Source: a virus (taxonomy: Duplodnaviria; Heunggongvirae; Uroviricota; Caudoviricetes). Taken from it: DNA of 36,030 bases. The notes beneath the pieces were generated by a model. The model made no database searches. It was not told the DNA's origin and saw nothing but the letters and a program-made list of their open reading frames with translations. The stretch lies in the IMG/VR virus record IMGVR_UViG_3300033696_000004, positions 1-36,030 of that record, one strand, 5' to 3'. Both the position numbers and the translations under genes were made by a program. Positions 1-23,964 of the stretch are shown here, in pieces (position 1 is the first letter of the stretch; each line of letters begins with the position of its first letter).

Positions 1-91
1 TTTAAAATCAGGGGTTGACAAGATTATAATTAACCCCTATAATTACCAAATCAAGACAACAACGGTTGTTGTCGAAATCGGAGTTTATACC
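1..91 (+). promoter_or_regulatory. Early cassette family A, copy 1: sigma70 promoter + 5' stem-loop + RBS
   Basis: TTGACA-17 bp-TATAAT, hairpin GACAACAA-CGG-TTGTTGTC, GGAG RBS, then ATG at 92; 1-86 is identical to 345-430. Confidence 0.9.
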
Positions 92-256
92 ATGGCTACT
101 ACATCAAACCTTAAAAAGTTTTTAATCACTCTTACAAATTTTGTTGGTTCTCACGACGAATTGAAAGAATTCAGCACAAAAGCTGAAGCGGTAGAATACG
201 CACAATATCAGGCGTATTCATACGGTGCTTATTCGTGGACGGTTGACCAACAATAA
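92..256 (+). CDS. Hypothetical early protein, 54 aa (MATTSNLKKF...)
   Basis: Own translation (below ORF-track cutoff); directly behind cassette RBS, ends just before the next promoter. Confidence 0.8.
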   Translation: MATTSNLKKFLITLTNFVGSHDELKEFSTKAEAVEYAQYQAYSYGAYSWTVDQQ

Positions 257-300
257 TTTAAAAATAGGGGTTGACAATTTAATAGTCAACCCCTACAATG
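257..300 (+). promoter_or_regulatory. Partial family A promoter with no downstream gene
   Basis: TTGACA-17-TACAAT within inverted repeat GGGGTTGAC...GTCAACCCC. Confidence 0.7.
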
Positions 301-344
301 AAACAACGAAGGAAATTCTAAAAGCAAAAGTTTTTAAAATTATC

Positions 345-434
345 TTTAAAATCAGGGGTTGACAAGATTATAATTAACCCCTATAATTACCAAATCAAGA
401 CAACAACGGTTGTTGTCGAAATCGGAGTTTCAAA
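345..434 (+). promoter_or_regulatory. Early cassette family A, copy 2
   Basis: 86-bp exact repeat of 1-86. Confidence 0.9.
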
Positions 435-857
435 ATGTCAGTTCAAATCACTATCGCAAATGTTAACGTTATCACTCGTTCGGCTGCTCGTGTCGCTGTT
501 AAAAAGCTTTTACAACGCGTTGACGTAACAAGCGCAAAAGTTATCGATAATGGTGTAGAATCGGATCAGCGTTGGGTTGTTCAATTTGAATACATTGAAA
601 CCGTGATCGAGCAATTGCAAGCAATCGAACATAAAACCACGGTGATCGATGGCACTTGCGAAATTATCGGAGAATCAAAAACGGTTGAAAATATCGGCTT
701 GCCAGTGTTGACAATGGAACGTAAAACGCTTACAATTCCGTTATCAAGTGGTAACCGTGGTAACCGTGGTAATGTTAAAACTTGTATTATGTCGGATCGT
801 CATGGTCGTAAAAAATCTGTAATTGTTAAGATCAAGCGTAGTAAATTAAATCAATAA
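435..857 (+). CDS. Hypothetical early protein with basic C-terminus resembling the IF2-associated domain
   Basis: ORF behind cassette; LTMERKT...GRKKSVIVKIKRSK. Confidence 0.75.
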   Translation: MSVQITIANVNVITRSAARVAVKKLLQRVDVTSAKVIDNGVESDQRWVVQFEYIETVIEQLQAIEHKTTVIDGTCEIIGESKTVENIGLPVLTMERKTLTIPLSSGNRGNRGNVKTCIMSDRHGRKKSVIVKIKRSKLNQ

Positions 858-861
858 AATT

Positions 862-951
862 ACAATCTAGGGGTTGACACAAAATTGATTAACCCCTATA
901 ATTACCAAATCAAGACAACAATGGTTGTTGTCTAAATCGGAGTTTATAAAA
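862..951 (+). promoter_or_regulatory. Early cassette family A, copy 3
   Basis: TTGACA...TATAAT, GACAACAA hairpin, GGAG. Confidence 0.9.
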
Positions 952-1353
952 ATGGCTAAATCACAATACTTTTCACTTGAAAGCGTTAAACGTTCTATTT
1001 ACAATATCGTAAAACATGCGCCTGAAAATGGCACAAGTCAAAAGCGTGTTTTTGAACTAGTAGACGGTTTTATTAATGACATGAAACCATATCCAAAAAA
1101 CGAACGTGTGATCGCCCGTGCTTATTTTAGCGGAATGTTTGAATTTATGAGCGATCAGGATACGGTTTTCCTTTACAACGTAGACGGTAAACTATACGCA
1201 ACAAAGCAAAACAAAGATCTAGATTTTCCACACTGGGAAACGTTGGACGGTGATGTTAGCGAAATCACAAAAAAGATCGGATCGTTGGGTGGTATGTATT
1301 ACAAAAACGGCAAACCATTTTGTAATCGTGCGGTACAATTAAGCGAAAAATAG
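952..1353 (+). CDS. Hypothetical early protein, 133 aa
   Basis: Start moved from 925 to ATG 952 behind cassette RBS. Confidence 0.8.
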   Translation: MAKSQYFSLESVKRSIYNIVKHAPENGTSQKRVFELVDGFINDMKPYPKNERVIARAYFSGMFEFMSDQDTVFLYNVDGKLYATKQNKDLDFPHWETLDGDVSEITKKIGSLGGMYYKNGKPFCNRAVQLSEK

Positions 1354-1444
1354 TTTAAAATCAGGGGTTGACAAGAAAATGATTAACCCCTATAATTACC
1401 AAATCAAGACAACAACGGTTGTTGTCTAAATCGGAGTTTATGCC
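1354..1444 (+). promoter_or_regulatory. Early cassette family A, copy 4
   Basis: Same promoter/hairpin/RBS repeat. Confidence 0.9.
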
Positions 1445-1693
1445 GTGTACCTAAGATACCTAAGTAATAAAGTTGATTCTCGTTTTGGTTCGATGCGATT
1501 TGATAGTAATACCCTACTTTTAACGTTTTCGGATTACCGTCAAGATAAAACGACAAGCCATAAACGCAAGGTTTACCGCAACAAAAAAGCGGATCTGTAT
1601 TACGTAATTTTCGAAGGTGAAAAGTTTCGAGTAACTAATTCACTTTTACCGCTTGATCTAAGCCACGAAATAACACCACATTGTTTTAATTAA
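1445..1693 (+). CDS. Hypothetical early protein
   Basis: GTG start behind cassette RBS; fills the space between two cassettes. Confidence 0.75.
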   Translation: MYLRYLSNKVDSRFGSMRFDSNTLLLTFSDYRQDKTTSHKRKVYRNKKADLYYVIFEGEKFRVTNSLLPLDLSHEITPHCFN

Positions 1694-1783
1694 TTTAAAA
1701 TTAGGGGTTGACAATAAACAACCCCTGATCAATAATACCACATCAAGACAACAACGGTTGTTGTCTAAATCGGAGTTTATACC
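1694..1783 (+). promoter_or_regulatory. Early cassette family A, copy 5
   Basis: Same repeat, variant spacer and -10. Confidence 0.85.
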
Positions 1784-2299
1784 ATGGCTAAATTTTTCTG
1801 TAATCCTTATTCGTTTGAGTTAAATGGTTTCTTCTTTACTACTTTAGAAGAGTATCAAAACCGTCTAGCTTTTGCTAAAATTTCGCAAAAATCAGTTGAT
1901 TTTGAAAATGAAATTGAATTGATTGACGGCTCAAACATCGAACGTTCTATTTTTGATTTGTCAAGTCAAAACATCGAAAAGTTTTATGAGTTGGTTGAAT
2001 CATTGAGCGAATTAGACGAAAATCAAATCATAGTTTTAGAACATTGTACAAATAATCTAGGTTATGATTTTGATACAATTTTTAATCATATGGATAGCTT
2101 TACAATCTGGACGGATCGCAGCGATTTAGAAGACGATAAACAAGATCACGTGTTTTGTAGTCTAGACATCGAAGAAAATGATCCGATTTATAGCTATTTT
2201 GATGCCTCTCGTTATGTTGAAGATCTGTTATTAAATGACGAAATTATCGAATTAAATGTAAAATTTTATTTTACTAATCCTCATTTTATTTTAAACTAA
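1784..2299 (+). CDS. ardA: ArdA-like antirestriction (DNA mimic) protein
   Basis: Very acidic 171 aa; PY-x4-GFFF-x3-EEY, EIELIDG and C-terminal YFD-x2-Y-x2-DL match proteobacterial ArdA as I recall it. Confidence 0.75.
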   Translation: MAKFFCNPYSFELNGFFFTTLEEYQNRLAFAKISQKSVDFENEIELIDGSNIERSIFDLSSQNIEKFYELVESLSELDENQIIVLEHCTNNLGYDFDTIFNHMDSFTIWTDRSDLEDDKQDHVFCSLDIEENDPIYSYFDASRYVEDLLLNDEIIELNVKFYFTNPHFILN

Positions 2300-2312
2300 A
2301 ATTTAACCAAAT

Positions 2313-2341
2313 AAAAAGCCGTCTAATTAGACGGCTTTTTT
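2313..2341. terminator. Intrinsic (bidirectional) terminator
   Basis: Perfect palindrome AAAAAGCCGTCTAATTAGACGGCTTTTT. Confidence 0.85.
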
Positions 2342-2367
2342 GATCCTGCTATCCTATCATATACTCT

Positions 2368-2553
2368 CTCAAACCGTCCACACGGTACGATCATAACATA
2401 GTTAATCCGATTGTATGCCTTGATCAATTGAACCGCTTAAAATCGTTTATAGACTGATTAAATCATTTTAAAATTAGTTGTTGACGTGGTGATCGTTTTA
2501 CCCCATAATCAACCCCGAAGACAACAATCGTTGTCTATTCTGGAGGTTTTACC
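2368..2553 (+). repeat. Long intergenic repeat copy 1, ending in a variant early cassette
   Basis: Homologous to 3706-3889; 2465-2514 identical to 3801-3850; TTGACG-17-CATAAT, hairpin, GGAGG. Confidence 0.85.
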
Positions 2554-2904
2554 ATGGCTTTATCGTTAATCGATACCCTACGCAACAACCGCAACAAGAA
2601 AGCGGAAATGATCCGTTATATGCGCTCTCAATTCAAACGGGGATCAAGGTATACCCGTTTATACCGTCTAGAATGTGACCATTATGATTTTTTTGAACTT
2701 GCACGTTTAACCCGTCCAACGATCACCGATCTTGAATTCTTAAAAATTGATCTTGAATTAGACTTGCGCACCCGTAACAACTATGATTATAATGATTTAC
2801 CGTGTGGACTTCAGGATCATTATTATGAGGTCGAATGCCAAAAGCGTGAATTTTTAAACGAAGTGATCGAAGCAATCGAACAACTTAAAAATAATTCAAA
2901 ATAA
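2554..2904 (+). CDS. Hypothetical early protein
   Basis: ORF with GGAGG RBS. Confidence 0.8.
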   Translation: MALSLIDTLRNNRNKKAEMIRYMRSQFKRGSRYTRLYRLECDHYDFFELARLTRPTITDLEFLKIDLELDLRTRNNYDYNDLPCGLQDHYYEVECQKREFLNEVIEAIEQLKNNSK

Positions 2905-2984
2905 CGCTTTACATGGGGATCTTGATCCCCTATAATTACCACATCAAGACAACAACGGTTGTTGTCTAAATCGGAGTTTTTAAA
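2905..2984 (+). promoter_or_regulatory. Early cassette family A, copy 6
   Basis: TTTACA-17-TATAAT, spacer hairpin GGGGATC-TT-GATCCCC, GACAACAA hairpin, GGAG. Confidence 0.85.
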
Positions 2985-3641
2985 ATGAAAGTATGTTTAT
3001 TCGCTGATCACAAGTACAATGATAATAATGGCGCATTTACTGTATTCACTTTGTTTGATACAAAAACAAAGCAATTCAGCACCGAAGGCGGTATTTATAG
3101 CGATCTAGCTTTTGATCACTATGAGCCAACGTCGGATCTAGATGTGATTTTTGATGCATCAAATCGATGTAATCCAACGCCACAAAACGGCGTTTATAAT
3201 AAGTACGCAAGCCGCTATCATTATACGGGTTGTATTGTTAGCCTGAAGCGTAGCCGTAAAGCTCCAAATAATACCCCTTTAGAAGTGATCGGGGATCGTG
3301 ATGGTGGTTATAATTCATTTTATAACAATTATCAACCCGATGAAATTTTAGTAAAACTTGACAACGGTGATCAAGTGTGGGTTAGTGCTGGATGCATTAA
3401 CGAAATTTTAAAAGGTGTTTTAGTTTTCCCGTTATGGCACATAACAGAAAACGAATACAAAAACAAGCGTTTTAACTGCAAAAACCGCAAAAATGTCAAT
3501 AATGACAAGCGTTTAACATTTGCTGATAACATTACATTGAACGAAGTTAAAAATGCATTCAGTCACTTGACAGAAGATCAAAAAGCTGATTCGTTAAAAA
3601 TCATGCTTGAACACTTCCCGAAGATCGCAAACCATCTATAA
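2985..3641 (+). CDS. Hypothetical early protein
   Basis: 218-aa ORF behind cassette, followed by terminator. Confidence 0.8.
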   Translation: MKVCLFADHKYNDNNGAFTVFTLFDTKTKQFSTEGGIYSDLAFDHYEPTSDLDVIFDASNRCNPTPQNGVYNKYASRYHYTGCIVSLKRSRKAPNNTPLEVIGDRDGGYNSFYNNYQPDEILVKLDNGDQVWVSAGCINEILKGVLVFPLWHITENEYKNKRFNCKNRKNVNNDKRLTFADNITLNEVKNAFSHLTEDQKADSLKIMLEHFPKIANHL

Positions 3642-3655
3642 TTAACCCCCAAATC

Positions 3656-3683
3656 AAAAACCACCTTATAAGGTGGTTTTTTT
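3656..3683. terminator. Intrinsic terminator
   Basis: Palindrome AAAAACCACCTTATAAGGTGGTTTTT + T run. Confidence 0.85.
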
Positions 3684-3705
3684 GTATCTGCTATTTTTGC
3701 ACGTC

Positions 3706-3889
3706 CTCAAACCGTCCACACGGGGCGATCATAATACGGTTAATATGATTGCATCAATAAATTATAAACCTCTCAAAATCGTTTATAGATTGATTAAACT
3801 ATTTTAAAATTAGTTGTTGACGTGGTGATCGTTTTACCCCATAATCAACCACGAAGACAAGATCCCCTTGTCGTTTTGGAGTTTATCCC
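3706..3889 (+). repeat. Long intergenic repeat copy 2, ending in a variant early cassette
   Basis: Homologous to 2368-2553. Confidence 0.85.
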
Positions 3890-4150
3890 ATGGCTAAAAT
3901 TAAAAACAAGATTGTACACAAAGATTTTAAAATTGAGTTTGACAAGTCGATCAGTCAAGTGTTACGTGCTGAAGTGTTGGAAGTATTCAACCAATACGCT
4001 GATCGAACCGTGATCGCTAGAAAGTCTAAAAGGTGGGCGCATATGACGATTGAGATCGGTCTGAATTATCGAGCGATCAAACGCAACGGATCGGATCGTT
4101 GGTATGTTTGTTCGCATGAATTGTATAATAGATTGATTAACATAAAATAA
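3890..4150 (+). CDS. Small basic protein, possible ParE/RelE-like fold
   Basis: IEIGLNYRAI...W-x3-SHE-x-YN resembles the ParE-like family as I recall it. Confidence 0.55.
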   Translation: MAKIKNKIVHKDFKIEFDKSISQVLRAEVLEVFNQYADRTVIARKSKRWAHMTIEIGLNYRAIKRNGSDRWYVCSHELYNRLINIK

Positions 4151-4163
4151 ATTACATAAGGGG

Positions 4164-4192
4164 TTGACTATGTTGATCCCTTGTTTTATAAT
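4164..4192 (+). promoter_or_regulatory. Sigma70 promoter facing non-coding DNA
   Basis: TTGACT-17-TATAAT. Confidence 0.75.
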
Positions 4193-4512
4193 AGTTGTAT
4201 AGTAGGAACGGAAACCGAAGGGAAACGCAGCACTCCTGGGTGTTATTTGAAAACACGATCAAGATCACAAAACCGATCATAGTTGGAAAATAACCGATCT
4301 TTTTTGTTGATCTAATCCGTGGATCTGTTATTATAACCCCGTAAACAGTTAATCACTGTTTACCCCATAGATCAGCGTTTAAAAGCGGTGATCGGTATCC
4401 CGTAATTTATAGGGATAATAACGGGCGGTTGATTTTTGCTATCATTGAAATTAATGATCGGTAGAATGATAACCGCCCGTTTTTCGTGTTCTTTCAAAAT
4501 TTGGGGTTTATC

Positions 4513-4784
4513 GGATGTTTAGAAGTATAGACGGCTAGAAGTCTGGATGTTTAGAAGTATAGACGGCTAGAAGTCTGGATGTTTAGAAGTATAGACGGCT
4601 AGAAGTCTGGATGTTTAGACGGCTAGAAGTCTGGATGTTTAGACGGCTAGAAGTCTGGATGTTTAGACGGCTAGAAGTCTGGATGTATAGAAGTCTGGAT
4701 GTCTGGATGTATAGAAGTCTGGATGTCTGGATGTATAGACGGCTAGAAGTCTGGATGTTTAGAAGTCTGGATGTCTAGATGGAT
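4513..4784. repeat. Tandem array of 34 octamers matching the MetJ met box (AGACGTCT)
   Basis: Strict 8-bp register: AGAAGTCT x10, AGACGGCT x7, GGATGTTT x7, AGAAGTAT x3, GGATGTAT x3, GGATGTCT x3, AGATGGAT x1. Confidence 0.9.
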
Positions 4785-5299
4785 AAAATAAAATAAATTC
4801 ACATAAATTTAGATTTTAGGATTTCCAGAGAAATTCAGAGAAAAATCAGTGAATAAACCATCATCGAGTATCGTCACTCTCATGGGCTGACTTACACCAA
4901 TGTTTTTGGGTGAGTACCGTCACTTGAAAAATCGAAGGAAATAACGCTTGGTTACACCATCGGAAAAACCTCGAATAAAAAGTCGAGCCATGGGAGTGGA
5001 CACATCACTATAATAATATCCTACTTACACCGATGTATTTTGAAGGGGCTATCATCACACTCATGAAGCTTGGTTACGTGGTCTTATAGAAGCCCACATG
5101 TAGCCTATTATAATAATCTTACTTACAGGGTTATAGAAAGTTGGTTACAGACTTTCACTTATAGTCTCTTATAAATCCGACTTAATTGCTTTAGTTTTCA
5201 AGGACTTATCAACTTTCCAGTGACACGGTTATAGAAAGTCAGTTCGAGACTTTCGATTATCAACTTCCCGAAAATCTGGTTGCGGCTTTTTACTTATGC

Positions 5300-5326
5300 A
5301 AAAAGGGAACCTTTCGGTTCCCTTCT
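5300..5326 (-). terminator. Intrinsic terminator of the endonuclease gene
   Basis: Minus strand GGGAACC-GAAA-GGTTCCC-TTTTT. Confidence 0.85.
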
Positions 5327-6298
5327 TTAGAAAAGTGACAAAATAAAATTTTCATTTTCTTGAATATTTTCACAAGTTTCTGTGTATCCAAATTTGAAAT
5401 TTTTCTTTTCGATTACTTTAGTTTTCAATTTTAATTTAATTTCTTTTTCTAAACTTGGTGGAATTGATCCATCCAAGAAAAATTTTGCTTTTATCGTTTC
5501 TGGAAAATATTTTGTTCCACGTTGCTGTTCTGCAATTCTTTCCAAATAATTTACACGATTTGTAATTCCAAACTTCAAGAAACTATGATTTGTTTCTGGA
5601 TGAACCCAACGAACTAAGTAGAAAATTCCTTGCGTATTCTTTCTATAACCACTGCTCATACAGTTTGGACATCCACGGTTGTCATTCTTAAAACTACTAG
5701 CATTGACTTCATACACGTTACCACAAGATAAATGTTTTAGTTTGACTTTATGTAAAGCACCAGTGTATTCGCTTAACTGTTCGTATCCTCTCTCTACAAC
5801 TATTTTCTCGAACTCAAGTTTAGATTTTTCTTTTTGCATCAAAGATGACACATTCGTCCGAACCTTCTTTACATAAGGTTTAGCTTTAGATACGTAACAC
5901 GCTCGACACCTAGTACCACGGTTCTTAAACCCGTTTGGTCTGACTCCATACACGTTACCACAAGATAAATGTTTTAGTTTGACTTTATCACTCGAACCAG
6001 TGTATTCACTTAATAACTCATACCCTTCGGATATAACCAACTTCTCGAACTCAAGTTTAGATTTTTCTTTTTGTAATACGGATGATACGTTAGAACGTAT
6101 TAAACACTTTGAACACCTAATACCACGGTTCTTAAATTGGTCTGCTCTGACATCAAATACATTACCACACGATAAATGTTTTAACTTTATCTTATGTAAA
6201 GCACCATTGTATTCACTTAATAACTCATACCCTTCAGCTTTAGCCAACTCATTGAATTCTTTCGACGCTTGTTCTTTACTGTTACTATGTTTATTCAT
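5327..6298 (-). CDS. Putative free-standing homing endonuclease: three Zn-finger repeats + C-terminal GIY-YIG-like (T5orf172-type) domain
   Basis: 3x GYELLSEY..KLKHLSCGNV..RCxxC; GIFYLV..FLKFGITN..R; start moved to ATG 6298 behind AGGT RBS. Confidence 0.75.
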   Translation of the reverse strand: MNKHSNSKEQASKEFNELAKAEGYELLSEYNGALHKIKLKHLSCGNVFDVRADQFKNRGIRCSKCLIRSNVSSVLQKEKSKLEFEKLVISEGYELLSEYTGSSDKVKLKHLSCGNVYGVRPNGFKNRGTRCRACYVSKAKPYVKKVRTNVSSLMQKEKSKLEFEKIVVERGYEQLSEYTGALHKVKLKHLSCGNVYEVNASSFKNDNRGCPNCMSSGYRKNTQGIFYLVRWVHPETNHSFLKFGITNRVNYLERIAEQQRGTKYFPETIKAKFFLDGSIPPSLEKEIKLKLKTKVIEKKNFKFGYTETCENIQENENFILSLF

Positions 6299-6396
6299 AT
6301 TATACCTGCCAAGGTTTTGATTGATAATAGAGATGACCACTAAGTAGTCACCAATGATACCTTGGCAAGTAAATCATCTCTATTATCAATTTAATG

Positions 6397-6404
6397 TATT
6401 TATA
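6397..6404 (-). promoter_or_regulatory. T4-type late promoter
   Basis: TATAAATA on minus strand upstream of the endonuclease. Confidence 0.7.
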
Positions 6405-6464
6405 TATTGACATCACAAATCATTATGATATGATTATACCATCTTAAACAAGGAGAATAAACAA

Positions 6465-6674
6465 ATGAATGAATTTAACATTGGCGATTTGGTTGCGTTG
6501 AAAGCACACCGTGAATTCGAAGCGGTTGTAATCGAATCCAACTTTGAACGTGTGAATGTCCTTCACACAAAAACAGCTAAGGTTGTTGAAGATTTACCAA
6601 ACAGCGTACTTGAATTAGTAACGCCAGTCCAATACATTGACAATCCACCAGAACCATCTATTCGTATGATGTAA
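6465..6674 (+). CDS. Hypothetical protein, SH3/KOW-like (FNIGDLV)
   Basis: AGGAG RBS. Confidence 0.75.
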   Translation: MNEFNIGDLVALKAHREFEAVVIESNFERVNVLHTKTAKVVEDLPNSVLELVTPVQYIDNPPEPSIRMM

Positions 6675-6731
6675 TCATCCAAATTGATTATGATACCATA
6701 ACCATATCTTAAACGAGGAGAATAAACAAAA

Positions 6732-7235
6732 ATGAAAATTACCAAATTGCAGCTACAAAAACTAAATGCTTGCAAAGATGGATTAAACCGTTTCATTACA
6801 CAAACAAATAATACCGATCAACCTGTATCCATTGTATCATTAATTGGTGGTGAAAATACTATTAGTGATCTACTTTGGTTATATTCTGAGATTTACGATA
6901 CAAAAGATATTATTAATTTCTCTTGTAAATGCGCTTTGATTAATATCGAGTTAATTAAACCATATACCGATAAGTACGATCTCATTGTTGATTTCTTGAA
7001 TAATCCAGTTGATGCTTCTCGTGTTGATGCTGCTCGTACTGCTACTTATGCTGCGTATATTGCTGCTTATAATGCTGCCGATTGTGATACTTATGCTACT
7101 TATGCTGCGATTGCTGCGATTACTTATATTGATGCTGGTGATGATGCCGATTACATTGCGTTTTATACGGTACTTGCTAATCCAGAATCAAAACCCGTGG
7201 TTGAACAATACTTAAAAGAATTATTCACGAAATAG
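6732..7235 (+). CDS. Hypothetical protein, MKITK paralog 1 with Ala/Tyr-rich variable segment
   Basis: Paralog of 7298 and 9841. Confidence 0.85.
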   Translation: MKITKLQLQKLNACKDGLNRFITQTNNTDQPVSIVSLIGGENTISDLLWLYSEIYDTKDIINFSCKCALINIELIKPYTDKYDLIVDFLNNPVDASRVDAARTATYAAYIAAYNAADCDTYATYAAIAAITYIDAGDDADYIAFYTVLANPESKPVVEQYLKELFTK

Positions 7236-7297
7236 TATTGACATCACAAATGGGTTATGATATCATAACCCTATCCTAAACAAAGTGAGTAAACATT

Positions 7298-7810
7298 ATG
7301 AAAATTACTAAGCAACAATTAATAGAACTAAATGCTTGTGAACGTGGATTGGAACGGTTTATTGAACAAACCGACGATACGGACAAACCAGTTGAAATTG
7401 TGTCGTTAATTGGTGGCGAAAATACCATTGGTGATCTTACTTGGTTAGCTGGTAAGATTTGCGATAAGAAAGATATTATTAAATTTGTGTGTAAATGCGC
7501 TTTGATTAATATCGAGTTAATTAAACCATATACCGATAAGTACGATCTTATTGTTGGTTTCTTGAATAATCCATTTGATGATACTCGTTTTGATGTTCGT
7601 ACTGCTTATGCTACGCGTACTGCTGCATTTTCTGTTCGTAATGTCGATAGTACTTCGTATACCGTTCGTAATGCTGCATTTTCTGCTTTTTATGCTGCTG
7701 ATTTTTCTGTTCGTAATTCTGTGGATAATGCTGTGGTTTATGCAATTCATTCTAATCTAAAATCAAAGCCGATTGTTGATCAATACTTAAAAGAATTGTT
7801 TACGAAATAG
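7298..7810 (+). CDS. Hypothetical protein, MKITK paralog 2
   Basis: Shares KCALINIELIKPYTDKYDLIV and QYLKELF. Confidence 0.85.
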   Translation: MKITKQQLIELNACERGLERFIEQTDDTDKPVEIVSLIGGENTIGDLTWLAGKICDKKDIIKFVCKCALINIELIKPYTDKYDLIVGFLNNPFDDTRFDVRTAYATRTAAFSVRNVDSTSYTVRNAAFSAFYAADFSVRNSVDNAVVYAIHSNLKSKPIVDQYLKELFTK

Positions 7811-7858
7811 TATTGACATCACAATGTGTTATGGTATCTTAACCAAAGTTGAATATAA

Positions 7859-8044
7859 ATGAAACATCTTTCAATTAATCAAGTCGAAAAAGTTAATTAC
7901 GAGTTCGCTTATCTTGCAGTAAAAGATTTTGAAGAAGGTGTTGCATTATACACCAAACTAAGTCATACTACATTCTCTAAAGTTGATAACGCACCCGATG
8001 TTCTTCGTTATCTGTATCGTTTATACAAAAGGAAATCATTATGA
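7859..8044 (+). CDS. Hypothetical protein
   Basis: Behind a truncated cassette; ATGA overlap with next gene. Confidence 0.65.
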   Translation: MKHLSINQVEKVNYEFAYLAVKDFEEGVALYTKLSHTTFSKVDNAPDVLRYLYRLYKRKSL

Positions 8045-8490
8045 ATAAAATTAAAATTGGTGACAAAGTTCGTCGCATTGGTGAAACGTTTGGTTCTATG
8101 CTACAAGGTGGAATCTATACGGTGTTAGAAGTTGATCATCAGGACAAAGTTATTGTTCTTAAAGAACTGGATCAATACACATACGATCTTAACTGTTTCG
8201 AATTGGTTCAGGATATCACAATCCCAAATAAACCATTTGGTCAACTTAAACTGAAGGAAAAGCTGTCTATCATCGAAGCATTCTTACGCAACCAGCGTCT
8301 AGAAGTTAGCATGAATGGTCAGCATTGGTCTAATCATATCCTTAACACTGATAGTAAGATTATGAACTGGGATGATTCTTTATACTACCGTGTAAAAGAT
8401 ACAGCTGAAACACAACTAAAGATTGAAGACATTCAATTCAAAATGAAAGAACTATCATCTGAGTTGGATAAACTGAAGGCTGGACTATAA
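8041..8490 (+). CDS. Hypothetical protein, GD-x-V-x-R family paralog 1
   Basis: SH3-like N-terminus, F-x2-L, YRV, C-terminal coiled coil. Confidence 0.8.
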   Translation: MNKIKIGDKVRRIGETFGSMLQGGIYTVLEVDHQDKVIVLKELDQYTYDLNCFELVQDITIPNKPFGQLKLKEKLSIIEAFLRNQRLEVSMNGQHWSNHILNTDSKIMNWDDSLYYRVKDTAETQLKIEDIQFKMKELSSELDKLKAGL

Positions 8491-8732
8491 TGCGCATTTC
8501 ATTTGATGATGTTGAATTACTTGATGTGATCCTAGAAAAAATCACGGGTAAGAGTTCATGTGTATACCTATCAGTTAGTGATTACAATAATGTACGCGGT
8601 GAAGTAATTCGTCGTTATTTTGATGGTAACGGTGGCGAAATCACTGAAGGTGATAATTGGTTTAGTATCGAAGGTATTGATGCTACGTTCTACGAAGATG
8701 AAAACGAAGAAGACTACGACTATAGCGTATAA
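8490..8732 (+). CDS. Hypothetical acidic protein
   Basis: TAATG coupling. Confidence 0.7.
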   Translation: MRISFDDVELLDVILEKITGKSSCVYLSVSDYNNVRGEVIRRYFDGNGGEITEGDNWFSIEGIDATFYEDENEEDYDYSV

Positions 8733-8741
8733 GGAACTATA

Positions 8742-9233
8742 ATGAATAATTTTAAATTTGGTGATTTGGTACGTCGTATTCAGTGTAGTTATGACGAAGT
8801 TAGAGTTGGTGAAGTATATACAGTATTGGATAAAAATGTCAATGGGGGTGACATCCGTCTACACGGGTTGAAAAATTCATATAATCCAATGCGTTTTAAG
8901 AAATTAACAGATGCCGAAGTCCATGATTACTACCATCGTCCATTCTGCAAATTGGAGAAAGAAGAAAAGCTAGTGTTGGTTAATGCACTGTATGACGAAT
9001 CATTAGAAGTGCAAATCTTGTCTAATGGTTGGGTTTCCGTACAAACAGATAACAGTGATGGTGGTATCATGTTTGTTGGTGAACGTGTGTATCGTGCTGT
9101 CAATCCAGCGAAACAAAAGCTAGTAGATTTGGAATCTAATCTGGAAAAGGCACAGGGTATTTTACTAACTACACGCAATGAAGTAGAACAACTAAAGCGT
9201 GATATCATTAAGTGCAAAGAAAGTATTAATTAG
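8742..9233 (+). CDS. Hypothetical protein, GD-x-V-x-R family paralog 2
   Basis: Same architecture as 8041; AAGGA RBS. Confidence 0.8.
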   Translation: MNNFKFGDLVRRIQCSYDEVRVGEVYTVLDKNVNGGDIRLHGLKNSYNPMRFKKLTDAEVHDYYHRPFCKLEKEEKLVLVNALYDESLEVQILSNGWVSVQTDNSDGGIMFVGERVYRAVNPAKQKLVDLESNLEKAQGILLTTRNEVEQLKRDIIKCKESIN

Positions 9234-9296
9234 TAGTTGACAATCAAATGGGTTATGGTATCATAGCCCTATCTTAAACGAAGCGAGTAAAACATT

Positions 9297-9779
9297 ATGT
9301 CATTTTTCGAAGATTTAGATTTATCAATGCAACAAGCTGTAGAAATGAAATCAAATCGTGTTGCGCGTTGGGAAAAGATCAAAAGCTCTATTGATGCAGT
9401 CAAAACTCAAATCGAAACATGCGATGATAACTCTATCTTGATTATCCCAAGCGTTATTGGTGGGTATGAAGTATTAGCATTACCCCGTCCATCTACGATG
9501 AATCTAGCTGAATGTGTTTTACATGCTACAAAGGTTCAAGATACTCGTGTCGAATCGGTTGGTGAAGATGTAATGCAACGTATGGCTTTGACTACTACTC
9601 AACTGATCATGAATGGTAAGTTCTTAGATGTATTCATGAAGATGGAAGATCCACGCCATTCTGTTATGGCTGGTCTATGGCAAATGATTATGTTCTACAA
9701 GAATACTTCTGACTGCGTTGAAGTATTCGCAGATAAGAACGTTGTATTCATTGATGTAAATCTGTTAGAAGTAAAATAA
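9297..9779 (+). CDS. Hypothetical protein
   Basis: Fills the space between two family B cassettes. Confidence 0.8.
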   Translation: MSFFEDLDLSMQQAVEMKSNRVARWEKIKSSIDAVKTQIETCDDNSILIIPSVIGGYEVLALPRPSTMNLAECVLHATKVQDTRVESVGEDVMQRMALTTTQLIMNGKFLDVFMKMEDPRHSVMAGLWQMIMFYKNTSDCVEVFADKNVVFIDVNLLEVK

Positions 9780-9840
9780 GTAGTTGACAATAAAATGGGT
9801 TATGATACCATAACCCTATCTTAAAAGTGAGTAAAATATT

Positions 9841-10260
9841 ATGAAAATTACTAAACAAGAATTGATTGACCTAGATGCTTGTAAATCTGGATTAAATCGG
9901 TTTATTAAACAAACTAATGACACCAATGAACCAGTAGAAATCGCTTCATTGGTTGGTGGTGAAAATACTATTGGTGATCTTACTTGGTTGGCTATTAAGA
10001 TTTGCGACAAGCAAGATCTAATCAAGTTCTCTTGTAAATGTGCATTGATTAACGTAGAATTAATCAAACCTTACACTGATAAGTATGATTTAATTGTTGG
10101 GTTTTTGAATAATCCTAGTAATGGTGATGCTGATGCTGCTCGTGATGCTTGTTCTGATGTTCGTGCTGCTGCTCGTGCTGATAATGATGCTGTTACTTTA
10201 ATAAATGAAGAATCAAAAGTATTGGTTAATCAGTACTTAAAAGAATTATTTGCAAAATAG
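9841..10260 (+). CDS. Hypothetical protein, MKITK paralog 3
   Basis: Paralogy; shorter variable segment. Confidence 0.85.
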   Translation: MKITKQELIDLDACKSGLNRFIKQTNDTNEPVEIASLVGGENTIGDLTWLAIKICDKQDLIKFSCKCALINVELIKPYTDKYDLIVGFLNNPSNGDADAARDACSDVRAAARADNDAVTLINEESKVLVNQYLKELFAK

Positions 10261-10319
10261 TTGGCAATCAAATTGGTTATGGTATCATAGCCCTATCTTA
10301 AACAAAGTGAGTACACATT

Positions 10320-10775
10320 ATGAAAAAGTTATTAGTATCTGCATTAGTTCTAGCGTCATTCTCTGCAACTGCATTAGTATCACCATCACCATCTGAAGAA
10401 TACCCAATGTTCTCTTTGGACAAGAAAGCTGAAATTATGATGGTATGTGGTTCTACTGGTGGTATCAACATGGGTATCATCAACTCAATGAAGACTACAG
10501 TAGATCATAATTCTAGTCCATACCACATGGATAAAACTACTATCAGTTACTCCAACGATAATACGTATGGTCAACCTGATGTTGTTATTCCAGCTCAATG
10601 GTCTCAATACAACAACGCATATGTTATCCAACATATTAGTCCAGAAGTTATTCAGAAAATGGCTGCAACTGGTCTTGTAATCAAACTGAAATTCGGTTAT
10701 GATAATGTACAAGAAGTACGCTTCGATAACCTATTTGGTGATGTGTACTCAATGATGACTGAATATTGCAAATAA
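10320..10775 (+). CDS. Hypothetical secreted/periplasmic protein
   Basis: Sec signal peptide MKKLLVSALVLASFSATA. Confidence 0.8.
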   Translation: MKKLLVSALVLASFSATALVSPSPSEEYPMFSLDKKAEIMMVCGSTGGINMGIINSMKTTVDHNSSPYHMDKTTISYSNDNTYGQPDVVIPAQWSQYNNAYVIQHISPEVIQKMAATGLVIKLKFGYDNVQEVRFDNLFGDVYSMMTEYCK

Positions 10776-10839
10776 GTAGTTGACAAACAAATTGGTTATG
10801 GTATCATAGCCCTATCTTAAACAAAGTGAGTAAAACATT

Positions 10840-11181
10840 ATGCAAATCAAACCTACTGGAATTAAAATTCAATTTACAAAAGAAATCGTAGATAAGATTA
10901 ATTTAATCAATTCAACAATCAAATCTAAGAACATTAATTTCTTATCAATTGATGGGATTTTATACGCTCGTTTGGTTAACGACTGGAACATTTCTATGGC
11001 TGATATTGAGATTAACCCAACCGATGGATGCATAAACGTTAAAATGGCAACCGAGTCACTGGAACATCTGAAGCATTTTAACGAGATTGAAATGGAATTA
11101 CTCCAAGTTGGAAATGACATAACTTTCATGCATGGAAAATCGCATGGAGTTGATTTGAAACTTATGGTATCGGACAAATAA
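10840..11181 (+). CDS. Hypothetical protein
   Basis: Behind family B cassette. Confidence 0.75.
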   Translation: MQIKPTGIKIQFTKEIVDKINLINSTIKSKNINFLSIDGILYARLVNDWNISMADIEINPTDGCINVKMATESLEHLKHFNEIEMELLQVGNDITFMHGKSHGVDLKLMVSDK

Positions 11182-11183
11182 TA

Positions 11184-11366
11184 ATGGATTATAAATTAAA
11201 ACTAACAATCTGGTTGATTATGCTATCAGTAGTGACTACAGCAGCAGTGTATGTCGTTACTGATTTTACAACCGATGGTCAATTAAACTGGCTATCATGT
11301 GTTTATGGAGCAGTATGTACAGTAGTGCTCATTAACGAAATGTATCAAACTTGGATTAAAAAATGA
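11184..11366 (+). CDS. Small membrane protein (2 TM)
   Basis: Two hydrophobic stretches; operon packing. Confidence 0.7.
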   Translation: MDYKLKLTIWLIMLSVVTTAAVYVVTDFTTDGQLNWLSCVYGAVCTVVLINEMYQTWIKK

Positions 11367-12004
11367 AAAATAATACTTCTGGAAAAGCTGTTGTACGTAG
11401 TGCAGCAAAACGTGAAATCGCAGTGAATAATGCATTACTTAAATTGAGTAATATTATTCACAAAAATGGTATAGTTTCTGTTCGTGACATCATCTGTCAT
11501 AAGCTTACTGGTTCGCTTTACACATCATATAAAACTGTGGTGGATAGTAGTGATTGTGGATTTTCTCAAAATGAATGGCAATTTAGTCCAGCATCATGTT
11601 TTCGTTTATCTGGGGATAGTGATGGTCAGTTTTTAGTATGCAACTCGATAAGTGTTATGGATAATTACTTACTCAAAATGTTAGGTTACCAAGTTTTTCT
11701 TGTAGCTGGTCGCTGGCGTATCTCTGGTAAATGTAAGACATTTACTAAGCGTTACAAAGACCGTAGCAAGCGTGGACGTGGAATGTATGTTAATCTTGCT
11801 GATTTTGACCAGAAAATGATGTGCGCATCAAATAATGTACATGAGTTTGATACAACTGAAGTTATTAACGGCATCAAAGAATCAAGTTTGCGCATCAACG
11901 AGTTACAAGTTAAGATCAATGAACTTCAACAAGAACTTGATCATGAACTAAACAACAAAGATGCTTTGGTTGCTATTGTTGAAGAACACATTCACTCTTT
12001 ATAA
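11363..12004 (+). CDS. Hypothetical protein with C-terminal coiled coil
   Basis: 213-aa ORF, ATGA overlap. Confidence 0.75.
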   Translation: MKNNTSGKAVVRSAAKREIAVNNALLKLSNIIHKNGIVSVRDIICHKLTGSLYTSYKTVVDSSDCGFSQNEWQFSPASCFRLSGDSDGQFLVCNSISVMDNYLLKMLGYQVFLVAGRWRISGKCKTFTKRYKDRSKRGRGMYVNLADFDQKMMCASNNVHEFDTTEVINGIKESSLRINELQVKINELQQELDHELNNKDALVAIVEEHIHSL

Positions 12005-12007
12005 ATA
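12000..12007 (+). promoter_or_regulatory. T4-type late promoter
   Basis: TATAAATA upstream of the ORF at 12035. Confidence 0.55.
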
Positions 12008-12034
12008 TTATATTTGAACTTACAAGGATAAATT

Positions 12035-12514
<480 letters not shown>

Positions 12515-12533
12515 TAAATTAAAAGGAAAATAA

Positions 12534-13121
12534 ATGAAATCTTTAATTGATTCATATAAATTAATGGCTATTGGCTTTATCGTGATGATGTTCACGGTGT
12601 TCTCTCCAATGTTAATGGCTTCTAAGTCATTGGTTATTGGTGCTATTGTGGCAAAATTCGTATTAGTAATCGCAATCTGCTTTACGAAGAATGAAAAGAT
12701 TGCTAACATGATGTTCGTTGCATTTGCTGGTCTAGCTGGTCTAGTACTTCACCCAGTAATCTTTATGAGTGGTATCCCAATGGGAACTATTCTACTGGTT
12801 CTAGGTTTAACAGCTACAATGTTCGTTGGTCTTACAGCTTACGCATTATACAGTGGTCGTGATTTCAGTGGTATGCATGGCTTCTTGTTCATTGCTCTGG
12901 TTCTAATGGTTGTAGCTGGTATCATGAACCTATTCATTGGTTCTGGCATCCTAGACTTAGTGTTGGCTTACATTGGTGTTCTGGTGTTTAGTGGATTTAT
13001 TCTGTATGATACTCAAGATATTATCGAAAACGGTCATGAACGTACAACTGCTATGAATGCTCTATCGATGTTCTTAAACATCTTGAACCTATTCTTATCT
13101 TTGTTGCGTATCTTCAAATAA
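12534..13121 (+). CDS. yccA: Bax inhibitor-1/YccA family membrane protein
   Basis: Multi-TM; RDFS, FSGFILYDTQ and AL-x-MFL-x-ILNLF-x2-LLRI motifs. Confidence 0.85.
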   Translation: MKSLIDSYKLMAIGFIVMMFTVFSPMLMASKSLVIGAIVAKFVLVIAICFTKNEKIANMMFVAFAGLAGLVLHPVIFMSGIPMGTILLVLGLTATMFVGLTAYALYSGRDFSGMHGFLFIALVLMVVAGIMNLFIGSGILDLVLAYIGVLVFSGFILYDTQDIIENGHERTTAMNALSMFLNILNLFLSLLRIFK

Positions 13122-13133
13122 TAATGTATAATG

Positions 13134-13160
13134 AAATCCAGACTTCGGTCTGGATTTTTT
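13134..13160 (+). terminator. Intrinsic terminator
   Basis: AAATCCAGAC-TTCG-GTCTGGATTT + T run. Confidence 0.85.
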
Positions 13161-13178
13161 AGTTTATAGGGTATACGA

Positions 13179-13490
13179 ATGAGTTTTAGTATTAAGAAGT
13201 TGACAAATGGGTTCGCTGTTCTTTATAATGATAAGCCAGTACTAGTTGGAAAGGATAATAAGTTCGCTATCCCTAACACTTTAATAAAGATAGAATCGGA
13301 AGAACCAATTCCAACCAAAGCGATGTTGGTAGTTGCTATGAGCAAACCACACGACATGCTATGGGAATTATGCAAATTGGGTGCAGAGTATATGTTCACT
13401 TATACATCAAGTGGTGTTAAAACTGACTCAATTAAACTTTTTGAGAAAAATCTTGGAGATATGTCTGGTAGTCACACAACTTTTATGTAA
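13179..13490 (+). CDS. Hypothetical protein
   Basis: ORF track, operon context. Confidence 0.7.
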   Translation: MSFSIKKLTNGFAVLYNDKPVLVGKDNKFAIPNTLIKIESEEPIPTKAMLVVAMSKPHDMLWELCKLGAEYMFTYTSSGVKTDSIKLFEKNLGDMSGSHTTFM

Positions 13491-13518
13491 TAATAGCTAC
13501 ATCAACTAAGGAGATGTT

Positions 13519-13767
13519 ATGAAATTATCAAAAATTAAGTTAATGGTGTTGTGTCTAGGTGCTTTCTGGTTAACTGGTTGTTCCGATAATCCAGAAGTTC
13601 GTTACGATTATGTCATGCCACAAGAACTTGAAGGTTGTAAAGTGGTAATCATTAAAAACGGCAAAGGTGGTAAGATTAAGGTGGTAACGTGTCCACGTCT
13701 AGACTGCACTTCTTCTACTTACTCAGAAGGTAAAACTACTACAACTACTGCTATTTGTAAGGGATAA
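13519..13767 (+). CDS. Putative lipoprotein
   Basis: Signal peptide with LTGC lipobox; AAGGAG RBS. Confidence 0.8.
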   Translation: MKLSKIKLMVLCLGAFWLTGCSDNPEVRYDYVMPQELEGCKVVIIKNGKGGKIKVVTCPRLDCTSSTYSEGKTTTTTAICKG

Positions 13768-13769
13768 AA

Positions 13770-14057
13770 ATGAGCACACAAGCAAAAGACATCGCAGACC
13801 CACTGGATAAAGAGTTCTTAGATTCAGTTACAAAGTTCTTAGATTTATTTAAAATCTTGAATACAAGTGCAGTTTGGCAAAAGAAACATGGTCATGTTAT
13901 CATGGATGCAGATGGTTGGGATCGTATGAACTATCAGTTCTCGTTCCATGAAGAATTAATCACCGAAAAAGAGTATTTCAATCGTTTACAAAAATCTACT
14001 ATTATGATTCAGCGTGGAAAGAATCGTTTTCCTGACAATGAATATAAGGTAAAATAA
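13770..14057 (+). CDS. Hypothetical protein
   Basis: Operon packing; MDADGWDR motif. Confidence 0.75.
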   Translation: MSTQAKDIADPLDKEFLDSVTKFLDLFKILNTSAVWQKKHGHVIMDADGWDRMNYQFSFHEELITEKEYFNRLQKSTIMIQRGKNRFPDNEYKVK

Positions 14058-14088
14058 ACAGTTAATTTAAAATAGTGAGAAAATAATT

Positions 14089-14340
14089 ATGGCTTTTCTA
14101 CAACAATGTAAATCTGATCGCAGTATGAACTTCCACATGTCAGCAACTCGCATGTTGTGTATTTTTACTGGTTCGGTTGGTGCTGGAATGATTTATAATG
14201 GAATCACTCCAATTGCAATGGTGTTATTCTTCGTAGCAATCTTTTGTACAATGGATCAGACTGCAAAGATTAACTGGAAAATAAAAGACATGGAAACTAA
14301 AAAGTGGACAGGTCGTTCTAAGCGTCAAAAGCGTCACTAA
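14089..14340 (+). CDS. Small membrane protein
   Basis: Two hydrophobic segments, basic tail. Confidence 0.7.
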   Translation: MAFLQQCKSDRSMNFHMSATRMLCIFTGSVGAGMIYNGITPIAMVLFFVAIFCTMDQTAKINWKIKDMETKKWTGRSKRQKRH

Positions 14341-14348
14341 TAATTTAT

Positions 14349-14386
14349 AATGAGTACTTGACGTAATCGAGTACTCATGTTAAATT
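14349..14386 (+). promoter_or_regulatory. Sigma70 promoter overlapped by inverted repeat
   Basis: TTGACG-17-TAAATT; ATGAGTACTTGA/TCGAGTACTCAT. Confidence 0.65.
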
Positions 14387-14415
14387 AAGACCATCAAATC
14401 AATGAGGAATACACT

Positions 14416-14907
14416 ATGAATACGGTTTTTAAAGTTGGCGATAAAGTTAAGCGTACTGGTTGTGACCATGGTAATGTTAAAAATGGTCACATTTACACAA
14501 TTAGTAAATGCGTTAATAATCATTGGTCTATAAAACTATGCGAAGTAAATGGGACTTATGATACACGCATGTTCAAATCAGTTGATGTAGATCCAGAATG
14601 GGTTCATGGTTCTTTTGTCAATCCATTACAAAAGATGTTCAAAGATTTGAATGTCAATGAGCAATTATCTCTGGTCAAAACAACTCTAAATGGTCACCTA
14701 CTGGACTTTAAAGGTCAAGTAGAACACGAATGGCGTACTATCTGCAAGTTGACTCCGCAAGGCGGTCTTGATGTATTCCATCCACATGCTATCATGCGTG
14801 TTAATATTGGACGTGTTCTTCGTCGTGTCGAATTAACGGAGAAAAAGGACAAATTGATAGAACAATTGAAAAAAGTTGAATCCGAATTGGAGAAATTAGA
14901 TGTGTAA
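14416..14907 (+). CDS. Hypothetical protein, GD-x-V-x-R family paralog 3
   Basis: FKVGDKVKR; coiled-coil end. Confidence 0.8.
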   Translation: MNTVFKVGDKVKRTGCDHGNVKNGHIYTISKCVNNHWSIKLCEVNGTYDTRMFKSVDVDPEWVHGSFVNPLQKMFKDLNVNEQLSLVKTTLNGHLLDFKGQVEHEWRTICKLTPQGGLDVFHPHAIMRVNIGRVLRRVELTEKKDKLIEQLKKVESELEKLDV

Positions 14908-15391
14908 GTTTAAAATTGGCGACACCATAATTCGCACTGAGCCATGTAAAGTCAGTAAGATTAAAAAGGGTGATGTATTCAAAGTAGTGGGATACCACCA
15001 TTCAAACCCCATGCATGTTATTCTTGATAAGTATAGAGATGAAGACGACCATTACTTTGAGGGATGTTTCGAATTGTATGCATCTAGTAATGAGTATGTA
15101 TTTGAAAACCAAACACATCGTAAGTTTTCTAACTTAACAATCTCAGAAAAGAAAAATTTAATGTGTGGAGCATTAGATCCAGATTATACATTAGAAATGT
15201 TTGACAGTATTGTGTGGAAACCTATCAACAAGAACAATTCTAACGGTGGGATTGACGAGTTTGTAGGTTCTGCTTATTATCGGGTTCTACACAATAAAAC
15301 AGAAAAGACTAATCAAATTATGAAACGGATTTTGGAAACTGAAGACAAGTTAAAATCATTAAAGGAAGAGTTAGAATTATGTTTGAAGTAG
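14900..15391 (+). CDS. Hypothetical protein, GD-x-V-x-R family paralog 4
   Basis: FKIGDTIIR; NSNGGI..FVG..YYRV similar to 8742. Confidence 0.8.
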   Translation: MCKFKIGDTIIRTEPCKVSKIKKGDVFKVVGYHHSNPMHVILDKYRDEDDHYFEGCFELYASSNEYVFENQTHRKFSNLTISEKKNLMCGALDPDYTLEMFDSIVWKPINKNNSNGGIDEFVGSAYYRVLHNKTEKTNQIMKRILETEDKLKSLKEELELCLK

Positions 15392-23151: not shown

Positions 23152-23964
23152 ATGAAAATATTTGAACAAGAACGTCCTGCTGCTTCTCGTATGACTAAAG
23201 CAATGTGGATTGAATACGGTGTCAAGTGGTACGAAAAGAAAGCTAAAGGTTGGACACCTCTTCAGTTTGCAAGAGAGTATAATCTAAATGCAAATACAAT
23301 GTCAAGGGCTTTTCGTAGATTCCGTGCAGAGATTGAAACTGAATTTAGTCAAGTAAAACCAAAATCCACTAAGAAGTCAACTTCTGGAAACAAATCGAAA
23401 GACTTAATTAACCAATTCCGCGAAACACTCCGCAAACGATTATCTGGCTCGTCTGTTGCTACAGAACGTCGCAAAAGCTCAGAGTGGTTCAAGAACCGTA
23501 TCAAGGTTGCTATGAGAACTCGACACACATCGAGACCAATAGCTGGACGCTTGTATACTTACGGTTATGATGCTAAATTAAAAGATGTATTGCCATACTG
23601 GGATAAGTTCCCGTTGGTAATTTACTTGGGTAACAAGAAAACTAAAGAAGGTAAGACTTTATTTGTTGGTCTCAACCTCCACTACGTTCCACCTAAAGCT
23701 CGTCAAGAGTTTTTAGAAGAACTGTTACCACATGCATCAACTAAAAATTTAAACGCTAACACCAAACTACGTGTAAACTGGGATATGGTTAAGAACCTAC
23801 GTGGCTCTGATTTGATGATTAAAACTTATTTACCAAATCACATTACTACAACTATGAGCGAAATCAATCCTACGGATTGGGCGCAAGCTATTTTCTTACC
23901 AACTCAACAGTTTGTATCCAAGGGTAAATCATTTGGTGCTAGAAAAGTATGGAGCAAATACTAA
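23152..23964 (+). CDS. gp2: DNA end protector protein
   Basis: YDAKLKD-x-LPYWDKFPL..GLNLHYVPPKAR. Confidence 0.93.
   Translation: MKIFEQERPAASRMTKAMWIEYGVKWYEKKAKGWTPLQFAREYNLNANTMSRAFRRFRAEIETEFSQVKPKSTKKSTSGNKSKDLINQFRETLRKRLSGSSVATERRKSSEWFKNRIKVAMRTRHTSRPIAGRLYTYGYDAKLKDVLPYWDKFPLVIYLGNKKTKEGKTLFVGLNLHYVPPKARQEFLEELLPHASTKNLNANTKLRVNWDMVKNLRGSDLMIKTYLPNHITTTMSEINPTDWAQAIFLPTQQFVSKGKSFGARKVWSKY

Follow-up and report, generated by a model that had tools for sequence, protein, structure and literature searches.

Short repeats lie beside the terminal repeats of phages T7 and T3, and iterons are present at oriE of phage T4. Operators of the methionine repressor MetJ consist of adjacent 8-bp met boxes and are recognised by at least two such boxes, each with at least one quarter of the consensus score and together reaching at least the consensus score. 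In the available part of PMC3228920, E. coli K-12 has 29 boxes over nine distinct operators, with 2-4 boxes each, and the 30 rows listed for Vibrio and Aeromonas operators hold 2-5 boxes each. On adjacent boxes MetJ forms a wheel-like assembly enhanced by SAM (PMC2775130, available part). In phage T5, a cluster of DnaA boxes has been proposed in silico as the injection stop signal, and it is posed as an open question how RecBCD spares T5-type ends while no phage protein has yet been made (bioRxiv 10.1101/866236, available part).

The window, that is the whole 36,030-nucleotide stretch of DNA analysed here, is part of a 119,931-bp IMG/VR fragment (contig G000) that is 67% complete. It contains a tandem array of met-box-like octamers at 4513-4784, the longest among the arrays examined. 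The features of the window that concern this array are the following.

1..4512, plus strand: distal portion of an early cassette that is rich in Dam sites and carries repeated promoter elements, belonging to the inferred terminal repeat (composition)
3890..4150, plus strand: last ORF before the non-coding block, with a ParE-like domain (Pfam PF24732, E 3e-8; phrog_1525)
4164..4192, plus strand: strong match to a sigma-70-type promoter, not followed by an ORF (11/12 consensus; 320 bp upstream of the array)
4199..4492, plus strand: hairpin-rich non-coding segment with clustered Dam sites (RNA fold z = -5.4, 0/200 shuffles as stable)
4513..4784, no strand assigned: tandem array of 34 met-box-like octamers of 7 unit types in one orientation (consensus match and MetJ matrix)
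4785..5326, no strand assigned: non-coding block nearly without Dam sites (no ORF of 60 aa)
5327..6340, minus strand: endonuclease gene of HNH/homing type, adjoining the non-coding block (phrog_681, E 6e-45; phrog_559)
23152..23964, plus strand: gp2-type DNA end protector (phrog_429, E 4e-66)

The phage belongs, by its gene content, to a deep branch of T4-like Straboviridae. The T4 core genes gp43, gp5, gp55, rIIA/B and long tail fibres are present in the contig, and gp43 is closest to that of Cronobacter phage S13 (55.5% identical). The host is likely a member of the Vibrionaceae, as judged from protein neighbours alone: the named neighbours of a YccA-like protein are mostly from Vibrio, and the nearest named homologues of the terminase on a companion contig (G001, described below) are in Vibrio and Photobacterium assemblies. 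The YccA/Bax-inhibitor-1 family membrane protein is itself encoded by the phage, at 12534-13121 of the window. Three C/G-only palindromic 4-mers are almost fully avoided in G000, one being absent from 120 kb, and this avoidance is shared with G001.

A recount of the window agrees with the original prediction in its description of the array. The 272 bp divide into 34 octamers in an 8-bp register without a break, with identity to the met-box consensus of 7/8 in 17 units, 6/8 in 6 and 5/8 in 11. The unit order (three copies of a 32-bp repeat, three of a 24-bp repeat, two of another 24-bp repeat and a mixed tail) confirms the higher-order repeats of 32 and 24 bp that had been described, and the perfect palindrome, said never to occur, is absent from the window and from the whole 119,931-bp contig. 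The edges are sharp, the adjacent octamers being only 0-3/8 identical to the consensus, and the other seven registers give mean identities of 0.5-2.0/8. The array is strictly polar, with all units facing one way. Its single-strand folding energy is -24 kcal/mol, against -86.5 +/- 7.5 kcal/mol when boxes are randomly flipped (0/200 as weak), so that polarity results in weaker hairpin formation; tandem duplication by itself would equally yield it. The array is partly covered by contigs of three public runs, all from one study and possibly from the source samples, but no contig spans the whole stretch, and the count of 34 boxes therefore rests on one assembly and could be an assembly value.

Boxes were scored with the MetJ matrix in Table 3 of the available part of PMC3228920. 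All 34 boxes reach the single-box threshold of 3.145 bits (range 5.5-9.5 bits, mean 8.0), and the array totals 271.8 bits against the required consensus score of 12.58, so the matrix scoring suggested along with the original prediction came out in its favour. Base shuffles of the array (n=2,000) give a longest run of four passing boxes, and the longest run in the rest of the contig is three. Only 686 of 65,536 octamers pass the threshold overall, as do 22% of those with 5/8 identity, and the three 5/8 unit types of the array lie at or above the 95th percentile of this class. Six of the seven unit types, making up 24 of the 34 boxes, were found exactly, by eye, in the natural operator rows listed in Table S1 of the same source, and 21 of the 24 bases in the first 24-bp repeat agree with the metA operator of V. 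cholerae, also as compared by eye.

The fit extends to a pooled set of 16 arrays from other phages and the window, in which 226 of 255 boxes pass the matrix and a single one is the perfect box. Across these arrays the non-consensus bases correlate with the MetJ matrix (Spearman 0.84), and the pooled substitution fit ranks 4 among 1,296 permutations, against 486 for genome background octamers; the rank stays at 4 of 1,296 after the window is dropped and seven lineages are kept. The window array by itself ranks 8 of 1,296, and ranks of single arrays run from 2 to 192, so that several arrays, taken singly, fall short of significance. The phage arrays contain C 66 times and G 23 times at half-site position 3 (84 and 27 in the MetJ matrix), and this excess of transversion over transition is not what mutation bias would give. 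Units in both orientations, in register, are present in four of the 16 arrays, as expected for a two-fold symmetric binder. The arrays were gathered by BLAST with the window array and bounded by consensus identity, which biases the set towards similar units. Selection for MetJ binding, whatever the mechanism, is considered highly probable.

The window array may be regarded as a candidate MetJ-binding site that, to judge from its letters, likely binds the repressor as an operator does, but it has no gene to regulate. Both earlier remarks on this point proved accurate: no methionine-related gene lies beside the array, its neighbours being the ParE-like ORF and the endonuclease, and no credible promoter overlaps it, since the matches inside the array (three at 9/12, minus strand) are at chance level (8 found vs 6.4 +/- 3.2 in shuffles).

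The array closes a Dam-rich cassette with small early genes and repeated promoters, and this cassette lies within a variable island located between gp25 and gp5 in S13. The GATC-rich region said to adjoin the array is real: positions 1-4512 contain 59 Dam sites, a density of 13.1 per kb, whereas other parts have 2.4 per kb (p = 5e-23). The accompanying idea that it is a potential SAM consumer was abandoned, as the local sites were judged too few to form a meaningful SAM sink. Dam-rich early cassettes with 13-16 sites per kb occur in the window (1-4512), in G001 (1-13450) and in phage AhSzq-1 (103-106 kb), compared with 0-3 per kb otherwise; they are possibly related to SeqA or methylation. The ParE-like ORF at 3890-4150 is an orphan behind a strong early promoter, with no recognised antitoxin alongside. 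Within 4199..4492, which is a candidate small RNA or origin-like element, an Rfam scan found no family near the gathering score; the segment contains an inverted repeat at 4417-4484, and the long stem and T run in which it ends stop 20 bp short of the array. In 4164-4492, three Dam sites spaced 13 bp apart are reminiscent of the oriC 13-mers. On the other side of the array only one Dam site occurs in 4785-6500, and a repeat boundary or physical end presumably falls within 4785..5326.

Arrays of this kind recur in phages. BLAST with the window array gave matches in 89 of 50,697 phage records, duplicates included, whereas no plasmid match was found by BLAST. The array-bearing phages form about seven other groups with arrays of 5-34 boxes. 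Among the matches listed are Demerecviridae of Vibrio, Aeromonas and Providencia (the last at looser thresholds), Asteriusvirus, Mimasvirus and relatives, Drulisvirus and Ermolevavirus, together with Pseudoalteromonas phage PH1 and Vibrio phage D164. D164 has two arrays 1.5 kb apart, and the PH1 array has at least one register shift. Podoviruses, siphoviruses and myoviruses have the same consensus, phase and substitution spectrum in common, and the flanks of the window array match none of the flanks of nine other arrays. The presence of arrays is patchy: the whole genomes of T5 and of five cultured T4-like phages (S13, Ci1, POP12, KP27 and Aeh1) contain no run above three boxes, as suits an accessory function. 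No close relative with the array was found; G001 stops short of the equivalent position, and contig G002 is unrelated and has no array. In viral contigs a loose tandem pattern recovered mostly homogeneous satellites, with a mixed array in 1 of 14 loci, and a tighter 19-base pattern recovered 18 loci, 17 of them with a scored box run. At four viral loci near contig ends there are arrays of a single repeated 8-mer that resembles the met box; they may be a satellite or a simple form of the same element. A literature search, based on titles and abstract openings, returned no description of met-box arrays in phages, nor did one on Dam-linked host sites in phages. The name MetJ was also absent from five phage papers searched for it. 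New here is the longest array examined, in a T4-type genome, with a linked hint of fixed ends.

The restriction to MetJ-positive hosts that had been anticipated is largely borne out, with one counter-example. Of the 89 matching records, 88 are named for genera in five MetJ-bearing orders, the exception being Xanthomonas phage XbC2. Its array is of full quality (13 of 15 boxes pass, mean 7.0 bits), and Xanthomonas belongs to an order without MetJ, which counts against a strict MetJ-host rule. As described in the available part of PMC11273794, XbC2 was isolated and typed on Xanthomonas only, with a 28-strain panel that includes no enterobacteria. Xanthomonas SamR was considered as a binder of this array and rejected, because its motif differs and is 24 bp long. 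A MetJ homologue encoded by the phage itself was found neither in the 67% complete contig nor in any of five records searched, four of them array-bearing. The reading of the array as MetJ sites thus stands well on sequence fit (matrix, substitutions and natural boxes) and for the most part on host range, XbC2 being set against it.

In all six genomes with a known terminal repeat, the array lies within about 800 bp of a physical end.

NNA-G4: array at 1-40, terminal repeat 255 bp
PGT2: array at 38-101, terminal repeat 260 bp
Dax: array at 357-444, terminal repeat 8.6 kb
XbC2: array at 648-767, terminal repeat 17.6 kb
CBB: array at 685-804, terminal repeat 22.5 kb
PR1: array 770 bp from the right end, terminal repeat 10.5 kb

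The PH1 array lies 200 bp past the large terminase gene, and no terminal repeat was found in the parts compared of AhSzq-1 (partial) and D164. In T5-like phages the array is close to the end that enters last, and as seen from the end that enters first it lies 9.6 kb inward. The linkage of arrays with ends favours action in cis, as a landing pad, over that of a decoy in trans.

T4-like phages normally have permuted ends. Contig G001 (46,338 bp) probably represents the neighbouring segment of this phage or of a nearly identical one, though no sequence joins it to the window. The genes gp25 to gp18, missing from G000, are present on it, its last 86 bases are those of a promoter cassette of the window, and the completeness of each of the two contigs implies about 178 kb. 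Their tetranucleotide signatures correlate at 0.958, compared with 0.16-0.34 for six cultured phages and 0.849 for the unrelated G002, and comparison by eye matches a loose end in run X3 to G001. The early cassette of the window likely continues, on the evidence of G001, beyond the contig start. In G001, gp18 directly follows gp15 with no terminase in the interval. The gp17-type terminase (705 aa), with a 79-aa ORF upstream, is found instead at 13,452-15,792, at the edge of the 13.4-kb Dam-site-rich stretch and pointing away from it; the T5 terminase, a few kb from the right repeat, likewise points away. G/C-run tracts are located just upstream of the G001 terminase (about 13,260-13,350). The position of the terminase at the far edge of the array-closed Dam-rich cassette suggests a terminal repeat of roughly 18 kb, and we infer such a repeat, bounded by the terminase on one side and with the array close to its opposite edge. 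Contig read depths, at about 2-6, are too low to show repeat copy number. The moved terminase suggests defined ends in a T4-like phage. Homologues of this type of terminase (43-45%, cluster representatives) occur on Vibrio and Photobacterium contigs of up to 2 Mb, hinting at T4-related prophages in these assemblies, on which a literature search found nothing.

The explanation we tentatively place first is that the array would load a MetJ-SAM coat near the physical genome end and act as a roadblock in cis that shields newly entered DNA. MetJ dimers would wrap the 34 boxes cooperatively into a continuous MetJ-SAM coat, and this coat near a free end would block host motors that load on ends, so that host MetJ would serve for covering a DNA end and not for switching a gene. 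The boxes, their matrix fit, their recurrence and their closeness to ends in the mapped phages are observed; the explanation supposes in addition that MetJ binds in vivo, that the host is MetJ-positive, that a fixed end lies near the array and that the coat has a shielding role. A role at entry is indicated by phage PGT2, which carries both a SAM lyase (2689-3066) and a met-box array (38-101), as the lyase would weaken MetJ binding after its early expression. The patchy presence of arrays counts towards such a role as well, and so does the RecBCD question posed for T5-type ends. PGT2 was the only one of ten phage records searched with a SAM lyase, and none was found in the 67% complete contig by a search without a positive control. 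Three points stand against a shield, besides the ability of RecBCD to evict bound proteins: the phage of the window encodes the gp2-type end protector, so that a further shield may be redundant; the T5-like arrays are near the last-entering end; and XbC2 has a full-quality array although it was typed on a MetJ-less order.

The same closeness to ends would suit a function late in infection, in which MetJ on the array would act in cis, either as a cofactor supplied by the host or as a roadblock, to set the place of the terminase cut or of the duplication of the terminal repeat. The terminases of lambda and P1 are aided by host IHF and HU, arrays are located at repeat boundaries, the PH1 array follows its terminase gene, the T5-like arrays are near the right end, which is likely packaged first, and the G001 terminase has been relocated to the opposite edge of the same cassette. 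The lack of arrays in T5 and other relatives is odd for a core packaging signal, and the PGT2 SAM lyase would leave MetJ binding poor by that stage; we regard this late function as unlikely. A similarly low standing is given to the decoy that the original prediction put first, in which the arrays, once amplified, would titrate MetJ and so release methionine and SAM synthesis from repression. In number of boxes a single array exceeds the nine K-12 operators combined (34 against 29), genes for SAM-using enzymes are present on the contig (a Dam-type methyltransferase, a radical SAM enzyme and NrdG), and a terminal repeat would give early entry and two copies. However, a decoy has no need for a place within 800 bp of the end in repeats of 8.6-22.5 kb, the boxes of one genome are likely few against a MetJ pool of hundreds per cell, and extra SAM would also feed SAM-dependent defences, of which type I restriction is one. 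The available part of PMC7877911 describes phage SAM-lyase genes that derepress the met regulon, which favours the decoy, and that of bioRxiv 10.1101/866236 describes a stop of host RNA synthesis by T5 in about 5 minutes, which does not, the array-bearing T5-likes having A1/A2-type genes. Titration thus keeps its box count and SAM-using genes but becomes the weaker option, and the alternative offered along with it, a MetJ filament serving as roadblock, shield or handle, appears to fit better.

Two further explanations dispense with MetJ. The array could be an iteron or packaging site for a phage protein, its likeness to met boxes being due to convergence or to descent from a captured operator. 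The array of XbC2 on a MetJ-less host, the strict polarity of the window array and its position next to a promoter and a hairpin-rich, Dam-rich, origin-like block would agree with this, and short repeats are known to flank the T7 termini. Yet podo-, sipho- and myoviruses share consensus, phase and substitutions without flank homology to the window, and polarity also weakens hairpin formation; a phage-protein site is rather improbable. A neutral satellite, or a repeat inflated by assembly, is very improbable: homogeneous 8-mer satellites do match the loose pattern, with few mixed loci, and no public contig spans the array, but all seven unit types are within MetJ tolerance and equivalent arrays are present in finished cultured genomes. 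Our ranking accordingly puts the entry-stage roadblock first, repeat formation or packaging and the decoy next, and the phage-protein site and the neutral repeat as less likely.

A broader and still more speculative proposal is that at least four phage architectures independently built giant MetJ operators at their ends as a SAM-gated coat, and that a marine T4-like lineage abandoned the permuted headful ends of T4 in favour of a terminal repeat in the style of T5, about 18 kb long and edged by the relocated terminase and the 34-box array. If true, a well-studied metabolic repressor would gain a second, structural role at the ends of viral DNA, and the SAM status of the host would govern how phages enter or how their ends are processed, no phage protein being needed. 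It would also become testable, cheaply since both metJ mutants and cultured coliphages with arrays exist, how linear ends with terminal repeats survive or are handled before phage gene expression. Fixed ends together with a moved terminase would be a further unexpected finding in a T4-like phage.

Among known systems, natural MetJ operators (PMC3228920 and PMC4239095, available parts) share with the array the tandem 8-bp boxes, several of them identical, and their matrix scores are comparable (5.0-11.0 bits for K-12 sites, array mean 8.0). They differ in size, with 2-5 boxes in the rows listed against 34, and in that the Vibrio rows often hold the perfect palindrome, of which the array has none. 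The array, moreover, is located on a lytic-type phage, with no regulated gene or credible overlapping promoter. Iteron origins of plasmids and phages have repeats of about 17-22 bp beside an initiator gene, whereas the array unit is 8 bp, no initiator gene is found among its neighbours and it has no plasmid match. The DnaA-box cluster of T5 likewise consists of host-protein sites in a non-coding terminal repeat, and the PR1 array is at the corresponding place (bioRxiv 10.1101/866236, whose available part does not mention MetJ). That signal is defined by a DnaA cluster with A1 and A2; no exact DnaA box occurs in 3600-5400 of the window, and neither the A1 nor the A2 family was matched among 135 ORFs scanned of the incomplete contig. 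The arrays instead fit the metabolic repressor MetJ in contiguous 8-bp phasing and, unlike the T5 signal, occur in podo-, sipho- and myoviruses. Phage SAM lyases (T3 SAMase and Svi3-3; PMC7877911, available part) also act on the MetJ-SAM circuit, and PGT2 has both, but a lyase is a trans-acting enzyme and the array is a DNA element. The repeats at T7 and T3 ends and the T4 oriE iterons are, like the array, non-coding repeats at ends or origins; they are lineage-specific and tied to phage processes or proteins, whereas the unit of the array recurs in different phage families and is that of a host operator.
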